Shown in pieces: positions 44,809 through 55,466 of a stretch of 55,466 nucleotides of DNA. Position 1 is the stretch's first letter, and every line of letters starts with the position of its first letter. This stretch comes from an uncultured delta proteobacterium (GTDB taxonomy: Bacteria > Myxococcota_A > Polyangia > Polyangiales > JADJMO01). The DNA is taken from positions 1-55,466 of the forward strand of contig CAIXWQ010001095.1 in the NCBI GenBank assembly GCA_903923175.1. The letters are read 5' to 3'. Position numbers and translations under genes: made by a program. The notes below the pieces were generated by a model. The model did no database searches. It saw nothing but the letters and a program-made list of their open reading frames with translations, and was not told the DNA's origin.

Positions 44809-46191
44809 ATGCAGCTCGCGCGCTTCCCCGCCCTGCGCCGCGTCGCCGCGGGCTCGCTCCTCGCGCTGGTCGTGGGCGCCGTGCTGGCCTTTGCGCCCGC
44901 GTGCCAGCTCGCGCTCAACGCCTCCGACGCCGACCCGCGCTGCGATCTGCCGAACGGGACGCCCTGCGGCGACGGCACCATCTGCGTCGGCGGCGTCTGC
45001 TCCACCTGCAAGCCGCAGCCGGAGCTCTGCAACGGCCTCGACGACGACTGCGACGGCGTCGTCGACAACGGCTTCGATCTCGACGGCGACGGCTACAGCA
45101 CCTGCGTGCTCGACAAGACGCAGTTCGACTGCAACGACGACCCCGCCACCGGCGCGAGCATCCACCCGGGCGCGCCCGAGGTCTGCAACGGCTTCGACGA
45201 CAACTGCAACGGCAAGACCGACGAAGAGCCCAACGACTGCAGCGGCAAGGGGCTCGAGTGCTGGAGCGACCGCTCCCGGTGCGTCGCGCGCGGCGACTGC
45301 CGCCTCCACGGCTGCACCTCGGGCGGCTGCAACGCCGAGACGGGGCAGTGCACGTCGGCGGACTGCGTCCAGCTCGGGAGCTGCTCCGATCCGACCACGC
45401 GCTGCGATCCCAAGACGCGCACCTGCGTGAAGATCGCCAAGCTCGGCGACTCGTGCGACACGACCATCCTCTGCGACACCGGGCAGGGGCAGTGCGTCGG
45501 CGCCGACGTGCTCGGGCTGACCGGGAAGACCGGCTCGGTCTGCTCCACGTCCTGCTGCTCGACCGACCAGTGCGCGGCGGGGTTCATCTGCCGCGCCACC
45601 GGCAACGGCGCCTCGATGTGCGTGAAGGCGGCCGACGCCGGGCTCACCCTCGGCACCAAGGTCGTCCTGGCCGCGTGCAACGGCGGCGCCGAGTGCCGGA
45701 GCGGCGTGTGCGTGTCGGGCGCCTGCAGCGACGTCTGCTGCGCGAGCCCGACCTGCGGCGCCAGCGGCTCGTGCTCGATGCGCTCGGGCGACCACGACTT
45801 CGTCTGCCGCCCGAGCTCGGCGACGGGGAGCTACAACAGCTCCTGCTCGACCAGCTCGACCTGCAAGAGCGGGCTCTGCCTGTACCAGTCCTGGTGCACG
45901 AAGCACTGCTGCACGTCGGCCGACTGCAGCGCCGAGGATCGCTGCGAGACGACCGTGGTCGGCGGCGCGCTGGTCGCGTTCTGCCAGCCGCTGAACTGGA
46001 GCGAGACGGTCGGCACCAAGCTCGGCGGCGACGGCTGCGGGGTCGACTCCGACTGCCGCAGCGGGCACTGCATCTCGGGCCACTGCGACGACACCTGCTG
46101 CAAGGACTCCGACTGCGTCGGCGGCGCGCTGTGCCTCCCCAAGAAGGACGCGACCGGCTACCCGATGCACTGTCAGATCCCGGCGCAGTGA
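44809..46191 (+). CDS. Cys-rich lipoprotein with MopE-like putative metal-binding motifs
   Basis: ELCNGLDDDCDGVVD, DLDGDGY, DCNDD...IHPGAPEVCNGFDDNCNGKTDE; many C-x5-C repeats; starts right after the TPR gene's TAG. Confidence 0.8.
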   Translation: MQLARFPALRRVAAGSLLALVVGAVLAFAPACQLALNASDADPRCDLPNGTPCGDGTICVGGVCSTCKPQPELCNGLDDDCDGVVDNGFDLDGDGYSTCVLDKTQFDCNDDPATGASIHPGAPEVCNGFDDNCNGKTDEEPNDCSGKGLECWSDRSRCVARGDCRLHGCTSGGCNAETGQCTSADCVQLGSCSDPTTRCDPKTRTCVKIAKLGDSCDTTILCDTGQGQCVGADVLGLTGKTGSVCSTSCCSTDQCAAGFICRATGNGASMCVKAADAGLTLGTKVVLAACNGGAECRSGVCVSGACSDVCCASPTCGASGSCSMRSGDHDFVCRPSSATGSYNSSCSTSSTCKSGLCLYQSWCTKHCCTSADCSAEDRCETTVVGGALVAFCQPLNWSETVGTKLGGDGCGVDSDCRSGHCISGHCDDTCCKDSDCVGGALCLPKKDATGYPMHCQIPAQ

Positions 46192-46441: not shown

Positions 46442-48790
46442 CTACAGCATCGCCAGCGGGTCGACGTCGATGACGATGCGCACGTCGCGCGACTTGCGCG
46501 TGATCTCCTCGGCCGCGCGCTTCACCGCGCGCGCCACCTCGCGCAGCTCCTTGCGCGGCCCCTTCAGCAGGAGCCGGTAGCGATAGCGCCCGCGGACGCG
46601 TGGCACCGGGGCCGGGGTCGGGCCGCGCACCTCGACGATCTCGCGCTTGGTGGCCTCGAGCGCGCACGCCGCCGCCGCGAGCTGGGCCGCGACCTGCGCG
46701 GTGCGCTCCTCGGTCGGCCCGTCGAGGCGCACGAGCACGAGCCGAGAGAACGGCGGGTAGCCGAGCTCCTCGCGATCGCGCAGCTCGAGCTCCTGGAACG
46801 AGCCCACGTCGTGCTGCGCCGCGCACCGGATGGCGGCGTGCTCCGGCGTGCGCGTCTGCACCAGCACCTTGCCGGGCGCGTCGCCTCGCCCCGCGCGCCC
46901 GGCGACCTGCACCAGGAGCTGGAAGGTGCGCTCGGCGGCGCGGAAATCGGGCATCGAGAGCGCGGAGTCGGCGTTGATCACGCCCACGAGCGTCACGAAC
47001 GGGAGATCGTGCCCCTTGGTCACCATCTGGGTGCCGACCAGGATGTCGACCTCGCGCGCGCGCACGCGATCGAGGATCTTCTCGATCTCGCGGCCGCTCG
47101 CGACGTCGCGATCGAGCCGCGCCACCCGTGCGCGCGGGAACGCGCTGGCGAGCACGTCCTCGAGCCGCTCGGTGCCGGCCCCCTCGAGCGAGAGCCGCCC
47201 GTTGCAGGCGGGGCACTTCAGCGGCAGCTCCTCGACCCGATCGCAGTAGTGGCAGCGCATGCCCGCCGCGACCGGCTCGATCAGCCCGTCGCGGCGCGCG
47301 CGCGTGCCGGGCGCGCGATGGAACGTGTACGCGACGTCGCAGTCGGGACAGCGCAGCAGCTCGCCGCACGCCTCGCAGCGGACGGCAGGGGCGAAGCCGC
47401 GTCGGTTGAGGAACAGGATGGCCTGCTCGCCCGCGGCGAGCGTGGCCTCGAGCGCGCGGTGGAGCGGCAGGCTCAGCTGCTTGCTGCCGCTCGGCCCCGC
47501 GCCGACGTGCCGCAGATCGATGATCTCCACGCGCGGCATCGGCTGCGCCTTCGCGCGCTGCGCGAGCACCAGCCGCCGCGCGCGCCCCTGGTTCACCAGC
47601 TCGACGCTCTCGAGCGACGGCGTCGCGCTGCCGAGGACGCACACCGCCGACGCGCGCACGGCGCGCAGGATGGCGCAGTCGCGCGCGTGGTAGCGCACGC
47701 CCTCTTCCTGCTTGAACGACGGGTCGTGCTCCTCGTCGACGACCACGAGGCCGAGCGACGGCACCGGCGCGAAGAGCGCGCTGCGGGCGCCGATCGCGAC
47801 GCGCAGCTTCCCCTCGTGCAGGCGCCGCCACATCGCGAAGCGCGCCGCGGGGTCGAGCGCGCTGTGCACGACCGCGACGTCGTCGCCGAAGCGCGCGCGA
47901 AAGCGCGAGACCAGCTGCGGCGTGAGCGCGATCTCGGGGACGAGCATCAGCGCGCCGCGCCCGAGCGAGAGCGTGTGCGCGATCGCGCGCAGGTAGACCT
48001 CGGTCTTGCCGGAGCCGGTCACGCCGTGCAGCAGGAAGGGGAGGGGGGGCGTCTTCGCGTCGTCGAGCGACGCGGTGATCGCGGCCACCGCCTCCGCTTG
48101 CTCGGCGGTGAGCTCGGGCGCGACGTCGCGCTCCGAGGCGTCGGCGAACGCGCTCACCTCCAGCTCGCGCTCGTGCATGACCAGCACGCCACGCTTCGCC
48201 TGCTCGGCCACGATGCCGGGCGCGCCCTTCCACCGCTCGGTGAGCGCGCGCAGCGGCACCTCGCCGGCCTCGCGGACGTGCGCGACGATCTCGCTCGCGA
48301 CGCGGCCGAGCTTCACCCCTTCCACGTCGGCGACCCCGCGTGCGACGATCCGCTCCACGCGCGACGGCGCGATCTTGGACGTCTCCGGCGCGACCCCTTG
48401 CGCGCGCAGGCGCGAGATCGTCTTGCGCTCGATCGCGGGGAGCGCGAGCGCGAGCACCTCGCCGAGCGGGGCGAGATAGTACGACGCGACCTCGCGCAGG
48501 AACGCGAGCAGCTCCGCCGGGAGCGCCGGCGTGCGGTCGACGATCGCCGCGACGTCCTTGAGCTTGTCGAGCCCCTCCGGCGGCGCGGCCAGCACCGCGA
48601 CGACGACGCCGATCAGTCGACGTGCGCCGAACGGGACCAGGACGCGAGCACCCGGCACGAGATCCTGCGCGAGCGCGCTCGGCAGCCGGTAGGTGAACTG
48701 CCGGTCGATCGGCACGTCGAGCGCGACCTCGACGCACGGGCCTGCGGGCGGCGCGGCGGGCTCGTCGAAGAGCGTCGGGGATCGGGGCAC
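46442..48790 (-). CDS. priA: Replication restart helicase PriA (primosomal protein N')
   Basis: VEVALDVPIDRQFTY, LLHGVTGSGKTEVYL, LVPEIALTPQ, DEEHDPSFKQ, LGSATPSLES, FLNRRGF, four CxxC pairs, GTQMVTKGHD, QVAGRAGR; GTG 48790 preferred as start. Confidence 0.97.
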   Translation of the reverse strand: MPRSPTLFDEPAAPPAGPCVEVALDVPIDRQFTYRLPSALAQDLVPGARVLVPFGARRLIGVVVAVLAAPPEGLDKLKDVAAIVDRTPALPAELLAFLREVASYYLAPLGEVLALALPAIERKTISRLRAQGVAPETSKIAPSRVERIVARGVADVEGVKLGRVASEIVAHVREAGEVPLRALTERWKGAPGIVAEQAKRGVLVMHERELEVSAFADASERDVAPELTAEQAEAVAAITASLDDAKTPPLPFLLHGVTGSGKTEVYLRAIAHTLSLGRGALMLVPEIALTPQLVSRFRARFGDDVAVVHSALDPAARFAMWRRLHEGKLRVAIGARSALFAPVPSLGLVVVDEEHDPSFKQEEGVRYHARDCAILRAVRASAVCVLGSATPSLESVELVNQGRARRLVLAQRAKAQPMPRVEIIDLRHVGAGPSGSKQLSLPLHRALEATLAAGEQAILFLNRRGFAPAVRCEACGELLRCPDCDVAYTFHRAPGTRARRDGLIEPVAAGMRCHYCDRVEELPLKCPACNGRLSLEGAGTERLEDVLASAFPRARVARLDRDVASGREIEKILDRVRAREVDILVGTQMVTKGHDLPFVTLVGVINADSALSMPDFRAAERTFQLLVQVAGRAGRGDAPGKVLVQTRTPEHAAIRCAAQHDVGSFQELELRDREELGYPPFSRLVLVRLDGPTEERTAQVAAQLAAAACALEATKREIVEVRGPTPAPVPRVRGRYRYRLLLKGPRKELREVARAVKRAAEEITRKSRDVRIVIDVDPLAML

Positions 48791-48951
48791 GAGGGTTCGT
48801 ACACCATACCGCGGACGCGTCTGCTCCCCGCCGTCCGTAGGGGCACTCTGCACAACCATGCCTGAATTTCACGTGCGCGCGGTACTCCGCTTTAGGTACA
48901 CATTCCCTGCGCGCTCTGACCAGGACTTGGTGGAGCGACCCGGAGACGACG

Positions 48952-49602
48952 ATGCTTCGCGCCGACGAGCTCCCTTACAGCCTTGCGACGGAGCGCCTCA
49001 CGCTGCGCGCCTTCGAACCGGCCGACGGCGCCGCGCTGCTCGCCGCGATCGACGAGGGGCGCGAGGTGTTCGAGCGCTGGCTCGAGTGGCCCACGTCGTG
49101 CCGCACCATGCGCGACGCCGTCGCGTACTGCCGCCGCGCGCGCGGCCTCTTCGATCTCGCGCAGGACTTCCGCTACGCCCTCGTCACGAGGGACGACGCC
49201 CGGTTCGTCGGCGGGATCGCGATGCACGCGCCCGACCTGCGCAGCGCGCGCTGCGTGCTCGACTTCTGGGTGCGCCCTTCGGCCGCGCGCCGCGGGTTCG
49301 CCGCCGAGGCGCTGCGCGCGATCACGCAGTTGTCGTTCGCGGCCGGCGCCGCGCGGGTCGAGATCCTCGTCGAGCCGAACAACCGCCCCTCGCGCGCGCT
49401 CGCGACGCACGTCGGCTTCCGGCAAGAGGGCGTGCTGCGCGCCATGCTCGTGCGCGCCGGGCGCGCGCGCGACGTCGCGATCTACGGCGTGCTTCCGGAG
49501 GACTGGCGGCGCCTCGGTTCGCCGAGCAAGAGCCACGAACGGCTGTGTCCGGTGCGGGCCGAGGAGGCGACGCCGAGCTCCGAGACGGAGCGCTCGGCCT
49601 GA
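48952..49602 (+). CDS. GNAT acetyltransferase, RimJ/RimL family
   Basis: LATERLTLR...WLEW, FVGGI, LDFWVRPSAARRGFAAEA, VEPNNRPSRALA..VGFRQEGVLR. Confidence 0.88.
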   Translation: MLRADELPYSLATERLTLRAFEPADGAALLAAIDEGREVFERWLEWPTSCRTMRDAVAYCRRARGLFDLAQDFRYALVTRDDARFVGGIAMHAPDLRSARCVLDFWVRPSAARRGFAAEALRAITQLSFAAGAARVEILVEPNNRPSRALATHVGFRQEGVLRAMLVRAGRARDVAIYGVLPEDWRRLGSPSKSHERLCPVRAEEATPSSETERSA

Positions 49603-49644: not shown

Positions 49645-49778
49645 CGCCACGCGCGTCGCGCGCCGCCTAGCTCGTCCACGCGGTCGAGTTGTGCCTGGCG
49701 TGGCGGATCCGGTAGCGTCGGAGCGAGTCGGCTCGAGCCCCGGTGCGCCGCGCCCAGGGCGGAGGGAGGCGCGCTGTC

Positions 49779-51596
49779 GTGACGCATGGGCCGACGACTT
49801 CGAAGGACGAGCGCGCGGCCGCCTCGTCGCAGGGCTCGACCGAGCCCGACGGGGCGTTCTCCGTGGGCGCGGTGCTCGCGGGCACCTACGAGCTGCGGGC
49901 GCTCCTCGGCACGGGCGGCATGGGGCAGGTCTTCGACGCGTGGGACCGCAGCCTCCAGCGCCGCGTCGCGATCAAGGCGCTCTGGCGCGACTTCGATCCG
50001 GCCGGGCTCGTGGCCGAGGCGCGCGCGCTCGCGGCGATCCGCCACCCGGGCGTGCCCGCGGTCTACGCCCTCTGGGAGCACGAGCGCGTGCCGTTCGTGG
50101 TCATGGAGCACCTGCACGGCACGAGCCTCTACGACCAGAGTCGCCGCCGTCAGGCGCAGCACCGCCCGTACTCGATCGCCGAGGCGACGCGGCTGCTCAT
50201 CGGCATCGCCGAGGGGCTCCACGCGGCCCACGTGGCGGGGGTCGCCCACCGCGACGTGAAGCCGGAGAACGTGCTGATCACGCCGAGCGGACGCGTCGTG
50301 CTGATCGACTTCGGGCTCATGGTGGCGCAGACCTTCATCGCGGGCGCGACCGGCTACGCGTGCGGCACGCCCGAGTACATGGCGCCCGAGTCGATCTCCG
50401 ACGAGATCGCGCGCGGCGCGGCGCACCTCGTCGACGTGTACGCGCTCGGCGTCGTCGCCTACGAGCTGCTGACCGGCGTCGTGCCGTACCAGGACGAGGT
50501 GGTGGCGCAGCTGCTCCGGGCGCACCTGCTCGCGCCCGTGCCGAGCCTGCTGGAGGCGCGGCGCGACGTGCCCGAGGGGCTCGCGGAGCTGGTGACGTCG
50601 ATGCTCGCCAAGCAGCCGCGCGATCGGCCCGCGGGCATGGAGGACGTGCTCGCGGAGCTGCGCGCGATCGAGGTCGCGGGGGCGCAGGCGGCCCGCGCTC
50701 GCGTCACGCCGAACGCGGCGAGCTCCGCGCTCGGCCTGCGCGAGCAGCTCGCGAAGGCGATCGAGGAGGCCGACAAGCAAGGGCGCACGGTGGCGCTGCT
50801 GATGATCGCGCTGCGCGAGATCGACGCGCGCGCCGACGCGGAGGACGACGCCCTCCTCGACGCGATCGGCCTGCGCATCGGCGGCTGCTCGCGTCAGCAC
50901 GACGTCGCGGTCCGGCTCTCCGTCGATCTGTTCGCGCTGATCCTGACGAAGGTGCGCCACCCCGAGGACGCCGGCATCGCCGCGGGGAGGGTCGTGCGCG
51001 CGCTGGAGAAGCCGATCGCGGCCACCGGCCAGGAGCGTCGCGTGGGCGCCTCGGTGGGGATCGCGCTCTATCCCGCCGACGCGACCGACCCCGAGGGGCT
51101 CTCGGCGAGCGCGGAGCGCGCGATGCGCGGGGCCAAGCAGGCCGGGCGCGGGCGCTATCAGTGGGCGGCGGCGAGCGACGCCTCGCCGGCGTCGGTGGCG
51201 CGCAACATCGTCTGGAGCGAGATGCACGTCGTGGGCATCGCGGCGATCGACGAGCAGCACCACGGGCTCGTCGAGCGGGTCAACCGCCTCGTCGAGGGGA
51301 TGCGCTCCGGCCTCCCGCTCGAGCGGCGGCTCGACGCGCTCGACGCGCTCGTGCTCGCGACGGCCGAGCACTTCGCCTACGAGGAGCGCCTGATGCACGA
51401 GCACGGCGTCGAGAGCGCCACCGGGCACGTCGCGCTCCACCGGCGCCTGCTCGACGACCTGCGCAGCCTCGCCACCGGCCTCGACGAGCGCAGCCTCCTG
51501 CTGACGATGCGCTACCTGCACGAGTGGCTCTTCGGCCACGTCGACAAGACCGATCTCGTGCTCGCGAAGGCGCTGCACGCGCTCGGCGTGTCGTGA
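49779..51596 (+). CDS. Ser/Thr kinase - degenerate GGDEF - bacteriohemerythrin fusion
   Basis: Kinase GTGGMGQV, VAIK, HRDVKPEN, DFG, GTPEYMAPE. GGDEF-like fold with RLSVDLF and GASVGIALYP. Hemerythrin IDEQH, HFAYEE, HVALH, WLFGHVDKTD. SD GGAGGGAGG before GTG 49779. Confidence 0.88.
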   Translation: MTHGPTTSKDERAAASSQGSTEPDGAFSVGAVLAGTYELRALLGTGGMGQVFDAWDRSLQRRVAIKALWRDFDPAGLVAEARALAAIRHPGVPAVYALWEHERVPFVVMEHLHGTSLYDQSRRRQAQHRPYSIAEATRLLIGIAEGLHAAHVAGVAHRDVKPENVLITPSGRVVLIDFGLMVAQTFIAGATGYACGTPEYMAPESISDEIARGAAHLVDVYALGVVAYELLTGVVPYQDEVVAQLLRAHLLAPVPSLLEARRDVPEGLAELVTSMLAKQPRDRPAGMEDVLAELRAIEVAGAQAARARVTPNAASSALGLREQLAKAIEEADKQGRTVALLMIALREIDARADAEDDALLDAIGLRIGGCSRQHDVAVRLSVDLFALILTKVRHPEDAGIAAGRVVRALEKPIAATGQERRVGASVGIALYPADATDPEGLSASAERAMRGAKQAGRGRYQWAAASDASPASVARNIVWSEMHVVGIAAIDEQHHGLVERVNRLVEGMRSGLPLERRLDALDALVLATAEHFAYEERLMHEHGVESATGHVALHRRLLDDLRSLATGLDERSLLLTMRYLHEWLFGHVDKTDLVLAKALHALGVS

Positions 51597-51619: not shown

Positions 51620-52894
51620 TCAGCGCAGCCCGAGCAGCTCTCGCGCGCGCGCCGGGTCGGCGAGCTTGCGATCGATCGACGCAGCGTACGCCGCGGCGCG
51701 CGCGACCAGCGGCGCGCTCCCCTCGGCGAGGACCCCCTTCTCGAGGTAGATGTTGTCCTCGAGCCCGACGCGCGCGTGGCCGCCGAGGCGCATGGCGAGC
51801 TCGGTCATCGGCCGCTGGTGGCGCCCGGTCGCCGCGACGGCCCACGAGTGCGGCACGCCGGAGGCGGCGAGCTCGCCGACGAGGAAGCGCAGCAGCGACT
51901 CGCGCGGCGCCATCGCGCCCGGCACGCCCATCACGAACTGCACGTGGAGCGTCCCCGAGATCCTGTTCTCCTTCACGAGCGAGAGCGCCTCGTCGAGGTG
52001 CCCGACCTCGTAGCACTCGCACTCGGCGATCGAGCCCGTCTCCTGGATGCGCGCCGCGACCTCGCGGATCTCCTTGCGGGTGTTGACGAAGATGTCGTCG
52101 CCGAAGTTGATGGTGCCGCAGTTGAGCGTCGCCATCTCGGGGATCGGGCGGAGCAGCAGCGGCTGGCAGCGCTCCTCGATCGGCATGCCGACGGCGCCGC
52201 CGGTGGTGACCTGGATGACGACGTCCGACTTGCGACGGATCGCCTCGATCGTGGCGGCGAAGCGATCTCGCGACTGCGTGGGCTTGCCGTCGTCGGTGCG
52301 CACGTGGAGGTGCACGACCGACGCGCCGGCCTCGCGGCATCGCGCGGCCTCGTCGGCGATCTCCTCGGGCGTGAACGGGACGTGCGGGTTCTGCGCGCGG
52401 GTGACCTCGGCGCCCACGAGCGCCGCCGTGAGGATCAGCTCGGGGAGCGGATGCGAGGCCGGGAGCGCGTGCAGCTCGGGGGCGGCGAGCCGAGCGGGCG
52501 GCCGCTTCTGCAGCTCGGCGGGGACGACGCAGGTGCCGACGGCGCGGGTGACCACGATCGGCGGGTCGTAGTGCTCGGCGGCGCTCGCGGGGATGCCCGG
52601 CTTGCGCACGTTGCCGGCGACCTTGCGCGCCTCGAAGACCATCTTGCGCGAGGTGCGCCCGACGTGGACGAGCTCGGCCACCGCCTCGATGTAGTCGCCC
52701 GCGAACACCGGCGCGAGGAACTCGATCGACTCGTAGGCGCGGAAGAGCCCCTCGTCGCCGTCGTGCCGGATGAGCAGCTCGGTCGCGAGATCGCCGAACA
52801 GCGCGAGCATCCGCGCGCCGTCGACCAGCTCGCCCGCGTAGTGGGCGTCGTGGCTCGACATGCGCAGGCGGACGGAGGTGCGAAGGACGGTCAT
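51620..52894 (-). CDS. kal-kce: Fusion of 3-aminobutyryl-CoA ammonia-lyase (Kal, hotdog fold) and 3-keto-5-aminohexanoate cleavage enzyme (Kce/BKACE)
   Basis: N-terminal [55 protein letters not shown] (Kal). C-terminal [13 protein letters not shown]...[43 protein letters not shown] (Kce). Confidence 0.9.
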
Positions 52895-53065
52895 GCCGGG
52901 ACCTTAGAACGAGTCGCGCCGCGGCTGCATCGTCAAGGTTGGCTCGTCCGTCCCGCGCGAGGAACCGCAGCGACCACGTCTTGGGCACCTGCGAGGCACG
53001 CGCGTGCGGCGGCCCGACGCGTCCCGCCGTCGGAGTGCCCGGACGCGGTATGCTGCGGCAAGACC

Positions 53066-54595
53066 ATGGACCCGACCTCGCGCCGCTCGAACCCGCCGCC
53101 GCACCCGGCCGGCTACCCGGCGATCGAGGACGCCCCGGTGCACCTGGCGCCGGCGGTCGACGTGCGCGAGAGCGTCCGCCGCGCGCGCGAGGAGCTGCTC
53201 GCCGGGGGAGGCGTCGGCGAAGGGGGCTCGCGCTCGTGGCCTTCGCTGCCGATCGCGGCCGGGGCCGCGCCGATCGACGCTCCCACGGTGGGCACCACCG
53301 CGCCCATGGGGCTCCCCGCGGCGCAGGCTCCGGAGGCGATGCCCCCCTCGTCCTCGGGCGGGGCGCTCTACACGCTCGCGTTCCCGGTCGAGGAGCGTCA
53401 GTCGCGCCCGCCGCGCGCGCCTCTGCCCGACACGCGCAGCGCGCCCGGCGCCTCGGACGCGTTCGACGAACCCTTCGAGCCGAGCCCGCAGACCGTCGCG
53501 TTCGAGCCCAAGCCCTGGCTCGCGCCGCGCGTCGCGCCGCCGCAACCGCACGCGCCGCACGAGGGCTGCGAGCCCATCGAGCCGGGCCCGCAGACCGTCG
53601 CCTTCGAACCCACGCCGTGGCCCGGGCTGCGCGTCGAGCCCGCCGAGCGGAGCGAAGCCAGTCGCCGGCCCGAGTCGCCCGAGTCGAGCCTGTCGGGCCC
53701 GCGCACCGTCGCGTTCGAGCCCGCCCACGCCATCGTGCCGCGCGCGTCGATCTCGATCGGCGCGCCGCCGATGCCCACCCAGCCGAGCCAGGAGCCGGAG
53801 CCGGAGCACTGGCCGGAGCCGCTGCCACCGCCGGTTCCCCCCGAGCCGCCGCCTGCCTCGGAGCCGGCTCCTCTGTCGGCGCTCCCGCCGTCGGTGGCGA
53901 TGCCGCTGCACTCGTTCGCCCCCGAGGCCGCGATGCCCCCGGCGCTGGCGCACCTGATCGACGCGCCCGATCCGAGCGGTGAGCGCGGGGCGATCGCCCG
54001 CGATCTCGCGTCGATCGGCGCGCTCGACGAGCGCCCCGATCGCGAGGTGCAGCGCGAGGTCGGCGCGAAGGCGACGCTCGCCCGCGCCCGCACGCTCCGC
54101 TTCCGCCTGACGCTCCTCGACGCGTTCGAGGCCCTCGATCAGGCGCCGCTGCGCCCGGGCTCGATCCCGCCGGGGGTCGTCCCCATCGACGTCGCCATCG
54201 ACGCCGCGCTGCTCGTGGGCTTCGCCGACGGCGCGCCGTTCGTGCGGCACGTGGGCGCGGGCGCCGAGCTGCCGTTCGTGCGCGCGCTCGCGACCTTCAT
54301 GCGCACCGCGCGCCCCGACGTCCCTCGCTCGGTGCTGCGCGAGCGAGGCGCCGCGTCGATCGCCCGGCTCACCGTCGCCGGCTACCCCGCGGCGCTCGAC
54401 GCGCTGATGCGCGCGGCGCTCGAGCTCACGCTCGACGCGCGCGTGGCCGCGCTCGACGCCGCGGCCTTCGTCGCGCTCGTGCCGGCGGCGAACGGCCACC
54501 GGCTCGGCGCGCTCGCCGACCTCGAACGGGCGCTCTCGCTACGGACGGGCTCGGTCGCCCAGGCCCTCGAGCTCGCGCACCGGCGGAGGCGCTGA
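53066..54595 (+). CDS. Hypothetical protein: Pro-rich repeat region plus unknown C-terminal helical domain
   Basis: G/C-ending codons; TATGCT 11 nt before ATG; three (P/G)xQ/RTVAFEP repeats. Confidence 0.7.
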   Translation: MDPTSRRSNPPPHPAGYPAIEDAPVHLAPAVDVRESVRRAREELLAGGGVGEGGSRSWPSLPIAAGAAPIDAPTVGTTAPMGLPAAQAPEAMPPSSSGGALYTLAFPVEERQSRPPRAPLPDTRSAPGASDAFDEPFEPSPQTVAFEPKPWLAPRVAPPQPHAPHEGCEPIEPGPQTVAFEPTPWPGLRVEPAERSEASRRPESPESSLSGPRTVAFEPAHAIVPRASISIGAPPMPTQPSQEPEPEHWPEPLPPPVPPEPPPASEPAPLSALPPSVAMPLHSFAPEAAMPPALAHLIDAPDPSGERGAIARDLASIGALDERPDREVQREVGAKATLARARTLRFRLTLLDAFEALDQAPLRPGSIPPGVVPIDVAIDAALLVGFADGAPFVRHVGAGAELPFVRALATFMRTARPDVPRSVLRERGAASIARLTVAGYPAALDALMRAALELTLDARVAALDAAAFVALVPAANGHRLGALADLERALSLRTGSVAQALELAHRRRR

Positions 54596-54769: not shown

Positions 54770-55174
54770 GTGAGCACGAAGGTCCGCATCCTGGTCGCGA
54801 AGCCCGGTCTCGACGGTCACGATCGCGGCGCGAAGGTCGTCGCGCGCGCGCTGCGTGATGCCGGTTTCGAGGTCATCTACACCGGCTTGCACCAGACCCC
54901 CGAGATGATCGCCGCGGCGGCCGTGCAGGAGGACGTCGACGCGATCGGCCTCTCGATCATGAGCGGCGCGCACAACACGCTCTTCCCCGCGGTCATCGAG
55001 GCCCTGCGCGCCAAGGGGGTCACCGACGTGGTCGTCTTCGGCGGCGGCATCATCCCCGACGACGACTTCCAGCGCCTCCACGACGCCGGCGTGAAGGGGC
55101 TGTTCACCCCCGGCACGCCGCTCGGGCAGATCATCGACTGGGTGAAGACCAACGTCACGCCGCGCGCGGCCTGA
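54770..55174 (+). CDS. Cobalamin-binding subunit of a methylmalonyl-CoA-mutase-family acyl-CoA mutase
   Basis: [67 protein letters not shown]. Confidence 0.93.
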
Positions 55175-55186
55175 GCGCGGCCGCGG

Positions 55187-55466
55187 ATGCGCCGCACGAC
55201 GCTCGCCCGCTCGGGCTCGCTCGCTCCTCTCGCTCCTCTCGCTCCGCTCGCGCTCGTCACGCTCGCCACGCTCGTCACGCTCGCGTCGGCGTGCAGCCGG
55301 CGCGCGCCCGAGCCGGACCCCTCGGCTACGTCCGCGTCCGTCTCCGCCGCGGCGTCCCTGAGCGCGCCCGACGCAGCGCTCTCCTTCGGAGCTGCGTCCG
55401 GGCCCGCCGCGGTCCCGCCTGCCCGCTTCGCGCCTCCCCCCGGGATGCACTCGCCCGAGCGACGCC
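55187..55466 (+). CDS. Putative lipoprotein, 3'-partial
   Basis: MRRTTLARSGSLAPLAPLAPLALVTLATLVTLASACSRR (lipobox LASAC); frame stays open to the window end. Confidence 0.65.
   Translation, partial: MRRTTLARSGSLAPLAPLAPLALVTLATLVTLASACSRRAPEPDPSATSASVSAAASLSAPDAALSFGAASGPAAVPPARFAPPPGMHSPERR

Follow-up and report, generated by a model that had tools for sequence, protein, structure and literature searches.

The gene at 49779..51596 on the forward strand of contig CAIXWQ010001095.1, from the metagenome-assembled genome (MAG) of an uncultured delta proteobacterium (GCA_903923175.1), encodes a Ser/Thr kinase joined to a degenerate GGDEF domain and a bacteriohemerythrin in a single open reading frame (ORF) of 605 codons plus stop. 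The window analysed here is the whole contig, which is 55,466 nucleotides long. Judged from its sequence, the 605-residue product is a soluble, cytoplasmic Hanks-type Ser/Thr kinase with a C-terminal two-domain sensor module. The most likely reading, held with modest confidence, is that it is an O2/redox-responsive Ser/Thr kinase. The domain combination is new as far as the searches reach, although all of its parts are known and the lineage is known for kinase domain shuffling.

Kinase and hemerythrin domains

The N-terminal half contains a Hanks-type kinase of the RD class (residues 37-297; 49887..50669, +), which was identified by Pfam, by structure matches and by direct reading of its motifs. 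Pfam PF00069 (Pkinase) covers residues 37-288 (2.8e-42, 145.4 bits against a gathering cut-off of 31.7), and the structures of PknA and StkP match the domain at ~1e-40. The glycine-rich loop LGTGGMGQV (G44-G49), VAIK (K66), the alphaC glutamate E80 and the catalytic loop HRDVKPEN (H157-R158-D159, N164) are all present, as are DFG (D177), APE (A202-P-E), the subdomain IX aspartate D219 and the subdomain XI arginine R283. These catalytic residues are invariant across the three orthologues that carry the fusion, which are the window protein (P0001) and two diverged clusters, P0002 (77% identity) and P0004 (75%); both clusters are full length and contain the same three domains. In the structural model, the kinase has a predicted local distance difference test score (pLDDT) above 90 everywhere but in the activation loop (residues 184-191). 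The N-terminal half belongs to the Hanks kinase family by all the sequence and fold criteria tested, and at the level of its motifs the kinase is catalytically competent. An earlier interpretation made from the DNA letters alone, here called the sequence-only reading, had stated that all kinase catalytic motifs are kept, and the direct motif reading agrees.

The C-terminal domain (residues 477-605; 51207..51593, +) is a bacteriohemerythrin with the fold of a four-helix bundle. Pfam PF01814 (Hemerythrin) matches residues 486-598 (2e-9, 38.4 bits against a cut-off of 25.3), and the NCBIfam hemerythrin domain model TIGR02481 matches residues 479-597 with 78 bits (cut-off 51.75). The closest solved hemerythrin is DcrH-Hr, which matches in sequence at 5e-14 and in structure by Foldseek with a TM-score of 0.87-0.88 and a root-mean-square deviation of 1.6-2.0 Å. 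In the AlphaFold2 model, the four helices span residues 488-509, 514-541, 547-565 and 570-601, with pLDDT of ~90. Seven residues occupy the diiron ligand positions: H494, H531 and E535 (in HFAYE), H550 and H554 (in HVALH), and H587 and D592 (in HVDKTD). These columns align with the ligands of DcrH-Hr and are invariant in 44 relatives, so that the earlier claim of seven retained ligands is borne out by the alignment. The family-invariant columns of the hemerythrin are all retained except A482 (M/V) and R586, which is Gly in all three fusions. By every sequence and fold criterion tested, the domain is a member of the bacteriohemerythrin family, and it looks intact.

The GGDEF domain is degenerate and retains an inhibitory site

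A GGDEF-fold domain lies between the kinase and the hemerythrin (residues 320-462; 50736..51164, +). Pfam GGDEF matches residues 320-458 (3.3e-18, 66.4 bits against a cut-off of 23.8), compared with 159 bits for an intact paralogue in the same genome, and Foldseek against the PDB matches the domain to the GGDEF domain of YfiN (4iob) with a TM-score of 0.82 and a root-mean-square deviation of 1.9 Å. A column-by-column comparison set the fusions against 40 intact relatives; it examined, in both the GGDEF and the hemerythrin domains, those columns with at least 90% conservation among the latter. ALREID (residues 344-349; 50808..50825, +) replaces the parental metal and phosphate motif D-L-D-G-F-K. 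The metal aspartate (D344A), D346 (R/C), F348 and the phosphate lysine (K349D/A) are lost in all three fusions, together with the guanine-binding asparagine (N352A), the GH that follows it (deleted), the LTGLxNR start of the domain and Y450 (R). The DxDxFKxxND block also carries a deletion of 2-4 residues in all three orthologues. At the active site (A-site), R379-LSVDLF occupies the position of RxGGDEF, and the degenerate SVDLF (residues 381-385; 50919..50933, +) stands in place of GGDEF; the orthologues read GEGRF and AEGRF. The motif therefore differs in each fusion, which indicates that it is still drifting.

As judged from these columns, the GGDEF domain is catalytically dead and the protein is predicted to make no cyclic di-GMP (c-di-GMP); it is not a diguanylate cyclase (DGC), since it has neither a GG[DE]EF motif nor a complete DxDxFKxxND block. 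The sequence-only reading had described the domain as dead from RLSVDLF and ALREID, and both motif readings proved exact.

A second set of positions is kept. The structural Gly, Ser and Pro residues and the hydrophobic positions of the GGDEF domain are retained in all three fusions. The RxxD inhibitory site (I-site), RQHD (R372-D375; 50892..50903, +), is located five residues ahead of the degenerate A-site, from which it is separated by VAVRL. Neither R372 nor D375 varies among the three fusion orthologues, the parent family conserves both at 90% or more, and RQHD aligns with the I-site RDVD of the PA0575 GGDEF domain (5m3c). R404, too, is conserved across the parents and every fusion, in a helix that matches the one bearing the secondary I-site arginine (PleD R390, SgmT R794); it lies 19 rather than 18 residues past the motif Phe, and its equivalence to that arginine is by alignment pattern only. 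In sequence, the domain fits the definition of a degenerate-GGDEF c-di-GMP receptor of the PopA and SgmT type (PMC3509222). Because R372, D375 and the candidate secondary arginine R404 are kept while the active-site residues have all drifted, the domain may be a c-di-GMP receptor like SgmT and not only a spacer.

Gene structure, structural models and selection

Translation starts at GTG 49779, and the same start is found in P0003 (MTHGPTT...), an independent gene call on another assembly. The start codon is preceded, after a 9-nt spacer, by the Shine-Dalgarno-like GGAGGGAGG (49761..49769, +; read from the sequence). The third-position GC content (GC3) of the gene is 0.97, which is that of the neighbouring real genes in this region of 74% GC and differs from that of the many spurious overlapping ORFs. 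A scan for promoters and terminators gave no matches. In the Kyte-Doolittle profile, the 605-residue protein has no transmembrane segment and the maxima (1.73) fall within the kinase fold, which confirms what the letters alone had suggested; the domain boundaries proposed from the letters were also within a few codons of those found here.

The full-length AlphaFold2 model has a mean pLDDT of 88 and a predicted TM-score (pTM) of 0.65. Its confident parts are the kinase, the fold of the GGDEF domain and the four-helix bundle. The low-confidence stretches are residues 1-21, the activation loop (184-191) and residues 308-317 of the linker. When the C-terminal half was modelled separately from a clean C-terminal alignment (A3), its pTM reached 0.82, and the GGDEF-hemerythrin pair is therefore predicted to form a defined unit. 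Foldseek against the PDB found no solved protein that combines a GGDEF domain with a hemerythrin.

Selection was estimated from the pairwise Nei-Gojobori ratio of nonsynonymous to synonymous substitution rates (dN/dS) among the three orthologues. The ratio is 0.19-0.41 for the kinase, 0.28-0.43 for the GGDEF domain and 0.16-0.29 for the hemerythrin, values that are inflated in absolute terms because the extreme GC3 constrains synonymous sites. By contrast, the N-terminal tail (residues 1-36; 49779..49886, +), which is poorly conserved and predicted to be disordered (pLDDT below 50 at residues 1-21), has a ratio of 0.73-0.90. Compared with this tail, all three domains are maintained, the dead GGDEF domain included.

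Origin of the fusion

The two halves of the protein have different parents. The kinase half is closest (55-59% identity) to a large family of ~430-residue myxobacterial proteins in which a kinase is followed by a CheY-like receiver (P0005, P0006); in the same genome, such genes lie on contigs C262 (L003 1087-2457) and C1060 (L004 1126-2421). These proteins end in the receiver, whereas the fusion ends in the degenerate GGDEF-hemerythrin module. The kinase-receiver family (P0005-P0121) has the order Hanks kinase, then CheY-like receiver; it comprises more than 100 clusters among the matches listed and is apparently uncharacterised.

The C-terminal 296 residues are ~50% identical to uncharacterised PAS-like-GGDEF-hemerythrin proteins of ~440 residues (P0122-P0124). 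A paralogue of this kind on contig C1007 of the same genome (L005 1498-2838, -) is an intact cyclase with RLGGDEF and DLDGFKAVND, and it is the one that scores 159 bits with Pfam GGDEF. The fusion and these parents have in common the order GGDEF then hemerythrin, the same I-site and the same seven hemerythrin ligands; they differ in that an N-terminal PAS-like domain and an S-helix precede a fully intact cyclase in the parents, where the fusion has a kinase and a dead cyclase. In the closest members of the family, the N-terminal 130 residues gave no Pfam match. The wider family (P0122-P0162, ~440 residues) has a domain order opposite to that of VcBhr-DGC, the bacteriohemerythrin (Bhr) cyclase of Vibrio cholerae.

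In a maximum-likelihood tree of the GGDEF-hemerythrin module, the three fusions form one clade (100/100), which is sister (100/99) to an intact PAS-like-GGDEF-hemerythrin clade that contains the C1007 paralogue. The stem branch of the fusions is five times longer (0.71 vs 0.14). The fusion cost the module its PAS-like region, its S-helix and the conserved LTGLxNR stretch with which the GGDEF domain starts. The fusion has a single origin: a cyclase gene was copied, fused once behind a kinase of the kinase-receiver family, and then diverged fast. The GTP, metal and GG[DE]EF residues were lost after fusion; purifying selection continued to act on the GGDEF fold, on the RxxD I-site and on the entire hemerythrin. 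The sister placement supports the earlier proposal that an ancestral GGDEF-hemerythrin sensor gained a kinase. Both unfused parent types persist in the same genome, so that the states before and after fusion can be compared directly.

The new linker (residues 298-319; 50670..50735, +) consists of a helix that extends from the kinase and a flexible stretch with pLDDT below 50 at residues 308-317. Similarity to the kinase-receiver proteins stops at ~residue 310 and similarity to the cyclases begins at ~316-320, which places the recombination junction at ~residues 310-318, where it coincides with the sole low-confidence inter-domain stretch of the model. The linker between the kinase and the GGDEF domain is accordingly predicted to be flexible. 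The GGDEF domain and the hemerythrin are joined as in the parent family, whose arrangement is the ancestral one.

Distribution of the architecture

The combination of kinase, GGDEF and hemerythrin is very rare. A word-indexed search of 5.8 billion sequences returned it only in P0002, P0004 and P0003, the last being a fragment of the window's own gene. A search with the hemerythrin alone among proteins of 333-1059 residues gave 36 matches, of which only P0002 and P0004 carry Pkinase; the others carry GGDEF, HisKA/HATPase or HD-GYP. An exhaustive phmmer search covered 1.84 billion cluster representatives and listed the best 150 matches (at least 235 bits). P0002 came first with 958 bits, and P0248 is an unfused GGDEF-hemerythrin cyclase. 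The other matches among these 150 had neither GGDEF nor hemerythrin by local phmmer, so that P0002 is the only one that joins either domain to a kinase, in a listing whose scope leaves more distant kinase-hemerythrin fusions, scoring below ~235 bits, outside it. Among GTDB species genomes, the fusion was absent from the 8 others in the family and from 300 in the order to which this genome belongs. Surveyed partners of hemerythrin domains are methyl-accepting chemotaxis proteins, GGDEF, histidine kinases, CheY, PAS-GGDEF, EAL and HD-GYP (PMC2556348, PMC8846402), and a literature search for hemerythrin with Ser/Thr kinase found no such fusion described. The sequence-only reading knew of no characterised protein with this architecture, and the sequence and literature searches found it scarce and undescribed.

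Within the same genome, the 605-residue protein yields 149 matches, nearly all over the kinase domain. The sequencing runs that hold the gene are lake or freshwater metagenomes. The genome is also rich in hemerythrins, with 13 domains. One of these is located in a 1366-residue open frame on contig C81, near genes that by eye resemble CheR and CheW, and is possibly a DcrH-like chemoreceptor. Two loci were considered as split kinase/hemerythrin gene pairs and rejected for want of support. On contig C510, a small hemerythrin gene lies ~2.5 kb from a kinase match with another ORF between them; on C81, the hemerythrin lies beside the apparent chemotaxis genes, whose N-termini are CheR- and CheW-like by eye.

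Proposed mechanism and alternative readings

In an O2/redox-responsive kinase, the hemerythrin would bind a diiron centre that reports O2 or redox state, by analogy with DcrH, VcBhr-DGC and the bacteriohemerythrin-HD-GYP protein (Bhr-HD-GYP). The state of this centre (deoxy, oxy or met) would change the conformation or self-association of the GGDEF-hemerythrin module, with the dead GGDEF domain packed against the hemerythrin as an adaptor. Self-association of the C-terminal module would then bring two kinase domains together and permit trans-phosphorylation of their activation loops. PknB and PknD are examples of bacterial receptor kinases that are activated through dimerisation. Since the tether is flexible and the S-helix is gone, the signal would most likely pass through self-association of the C-terminal module; the flexible linker likewise favours control by dimerisation or localisation over a rigid allosteric relay. 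The dead GGDEF domain is thus probably a dimerisation adaptor, and possibly, as in SgmT, a receptor for c-di-GMP as well. Through the retained I-site, c-di-GMP may serve as an additional input or may direct localisation, for which SgmT is the precedent. A fuller version of this scheme, tentative at best, is a two-input switch in which the O2/redox state of the diiron centre and c-di-GMP at the relic I-site would jointly set dimerisation and autophosphorylation of the kinase. Precedent for hemerythrin control exists in VcBhr-DGC and Bhr-HD-GYP, whose output is controlled by the redox state of the hemerythrin (PMC8846402).

Several observations weigh against an O2/redox-responsive kinase. The stricter NCBIfam bacteriohemerythrin model, NF033749, scores the domain at 77 bits, below its 84-bit cut-off. 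The Arg that directly precedes the H587 position in at least 90% of relatives is replaced by a Gly that is fixed in the three fusions (R586G in P0001; window 51534-51536), so that the sequence adjoining the sixth iron ligand reads GHVD rather than RH.D. The sensed signal could be nitric oxide (NO), H2O2 or iron availability rather than O2. We know of no case in which a GGDEF domain relays a signal to a Hanks kinase; moreover, the S-helix, the usual signal transmitter into GGDEF domains, is deleted here and the new linker looks floppy. None of the RNA runs checked for the gene carries it, and the orthologue loci have nothing in common with the window, which leaves no conserved neighbourhood or pathway partner. 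In SgmT, c-di-GMP binding has no measurable effect on kinase activity and affects localisation (PMC3509222).

An unlikely alternative is that the protein is mainly a c-di-GMP receptor kinase. Binding at the I-site, and not the diiron state, would then determine the activity of the kinase or its sequestration within the cell, and the hemerythrin would have come along with the module as a secondary or structural part. R372xxD375 and R404 belong to the small set of polar GGDEF residues, invariant in the parents, that all three fusions have kept through the drift of every A-site residue, RQHD aligns with a bona fide I-site, and SgmT, PopA and ActA, two of them from Myxococcus, are receptors whose A-site is degenerate and whose I-site is intact (PMC3509222). 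The orthologues are only ~25% diverged, however, so that the retention of these three residues is weak statistical evidence. Binding at an I-site usually needs an Arg from a second domain as well, and none is identifiable here. The hemerythrin is the most constrained of the domains and has kept all its ligands, which makes it an unlikely passenger.

It is less probable still that the module acts as a decoy or targeting device. The degenerate GGDEF-hemerythrin half would heterodimerise with the intact C1007 cyclase, either poisoning its obligate GGDEF dimer in a dominant-negative manner or recruiting the kinase to phosphorylate the cyclase, and the protein would regulate c-di-GMP synthesis rather than sense O2 itself. 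GGDEF catalysis needs two domains to meet, the flexible tether of the kinase fits such a role, and the intact sister paralogue, which is the closest relative of the module, is present in the same genome. Against this, the two modules are only ~50% identical and the stem of the fusions is long and accelerated, so that conservation of the interface is doubtful; the S-helix that normally drives dimerisation in such cyclases is lost from the fusion, and the two genes are not co-localised.

A neutral or decaying domain shuffle, in which the kinase works independently and the C-terminal half is baggage, is improbable. Such a shuffle would suit a lineage whose kinomes are huge and whose domains are freely shuffled (illustrated in this genome by 149 matches, almost all of them to the kinase domain), the very narrow distribution of the architecture and the lack of an RNA run that carries the gene. 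It is opposed by the clear purifying selection on the C-terminal domains relative to the N-terminal tail, by three diverged orthologues free of frameshifts and stops, and by the retention of seven metal ligands and nearly every family-invariant hemerythrin column.

Because the window makes up one entire contig of a fragmented MAG (10.7 Mb in 1422 contigs, 95.6% complete), the possibility of misassembly had to be checked. A chimera joining a kinase gene to a separate GGDEF-hemerythrin gene, to which this fragmentation and the low read depth in the available runs might point, is refuted: P0002 and P0004 were assembled on six separate contigs from five Joint Genome Institute (JGI) metagenome samples; P0003, a 448-residue fragment (99-100% identical) on a 1484-bp contig of another assembly, spans the kinase into the GGDEF domain; a 392-bp unitig from a lake-water metagenome run matches 50432-50823 with 0 mismatches and crosses the kinase-GGDEF junction; and the degenerate GGDEF domain is unlike every unfused copy. 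Misassembly, which the sequence-only reading had named as a possible undoing of its proposal, is thereby excluded.

Comparison with known systems

The nearest functional parallels to an O2/redox-responsive kinase differ in their domain order and output. In V. cholerae Bhr-DGC (VC1216) and Ferrovum Bhr-HD-GYP, as is predicted here, the redox/O2 state of a diiron hemerythrin controls a fused output (PMC8846402). Both of these proteins carry the hemerythrin at the N-terminus and have synthesis or hydrolysis of c-di-GMP as their output, whereas in the fusion the hemerythrin is C-terminal, the GGDEF domain is dead and the sole catalytic output is a Ser/Thr kinase. In DcrH, an O2-sensing chemoreceptor of Desulfovibrio vulgaris, the hemerythrin likewise follows the signalling part on its C-terminal side; this membrane receptor has a methyl-accepting chemotaxis output and neither a kinase nor a GGDEF domain.

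PknG of Mycobacterium tuberculosis resembles the fusion as a soluble, cytoplasmic Hanks kinase with a fused iron centre, the redox state of which has been proposed to influence kinase activity. That centre is an Fe-Cys4 rubredoxin N-terminal to the kinase. PknG also carries TPR repeats; it has no hemerythrin or GGDEF domain, and the two proteins have no sequence relationship beyond the kinase domain.

Other proteins resemble the fusion in its GGDEF-related features. SgmT, in which a degenerate GGDEF domain with an intact I-site is a c-di-GMP receptor on a kinase (PMC3509222), is also myxobacterial (Myxococcus xanthus). It belongs to the hybrid histidine kinases, has a GAF sensor and lacks a hemerythrin, whereas the fusion is of Hanks type and a putative c-di-GMP receptor. 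A kinase-TPR-GGDEF protein of Clostridium thermocellum is an existing fusion of a Hanks kinase with a GGDEF domain; it has 1826 residues, TPR repeats, no hemerythrin and a GGDEF domain presumed to be active (PMC1262709).

The bacterial O2/redox sensors known to us work through histidine kinases, through chemoreceptors, or through enzymes of c-di-GMP synthesis or breakdown. If the present reading is true, a hemerythrin wired to a Hanks kinase would add Ser/Thr phosphorylation to these outputs. If the two-input reading is true, the protein would be the first gas- or redox-sensing bacterial Ser/Thr kinase built on hemerythrin, and it would turn two signals, O2 status and the level of a second messenger, into Ser/Thr phosphorylation in a lake-water myxobacterium. 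A compact, soluble protein of 605 residues would offer a test case for the way in which the state of a diiron four-helix bundle is transmitted to an adjoining domain, for the role of dead GGDEF domains after loss of activity, and for the emergence of new signalling proteins through duplication, fusion and loss of an old activity. Since the family is tiny (three clusters) and its hosts are uncultured, this value is mechanistic rather than ecological.

Genomic neighbourhood

Upstream of the gene lie PriA (46442-48859, -) and a GNAT gene (48952-49602, +). The nearest homologues of this PriA come from Polyangiaceae, Myxococcales or Polyangia MAGs, the best at 71%; the host is an uncultured myxobacterium of the Polyangia type. 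Downstream, a convergent gene (51620-52894, -) encodes a protein of 424 residues in which an N-terminal 4HBT/hotdog thioesterase-like region precedes a complete beta-keto acid cleavage enzyme (BKACE). The orthologue loci share with each other only a downstream GFO/IDH/MocA oxidoreductase. A GNAT gene beside the parental gene in locus L001 was considered as shared context and rejected, as it is unrelated to the GNAT of the window (E 3.8).

Further upstream, 44809-46191 (+) encodes a protein of 460 residues with repeated MopE-type putative copper-binding motifs (PF11617, 1.9e-11) and is overlapped by a long spurious antisense ORF. Beyond the BKACE gene, a stretch of ~1.6 kb at 52904-54500 with 75-79% GC has no long ORF with both high GC3 and a Pfam match; its only high-GC3 frame, 53398-54093 (-), would encode 231 residues with no family match. 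Close to the contig end, 54770-55174 (+) encodes a small B12-binding-domain protein (PF02310, 1.4e-24), which is overlapped by a high-GC3 ORF on the opposite strand (54877-55278).

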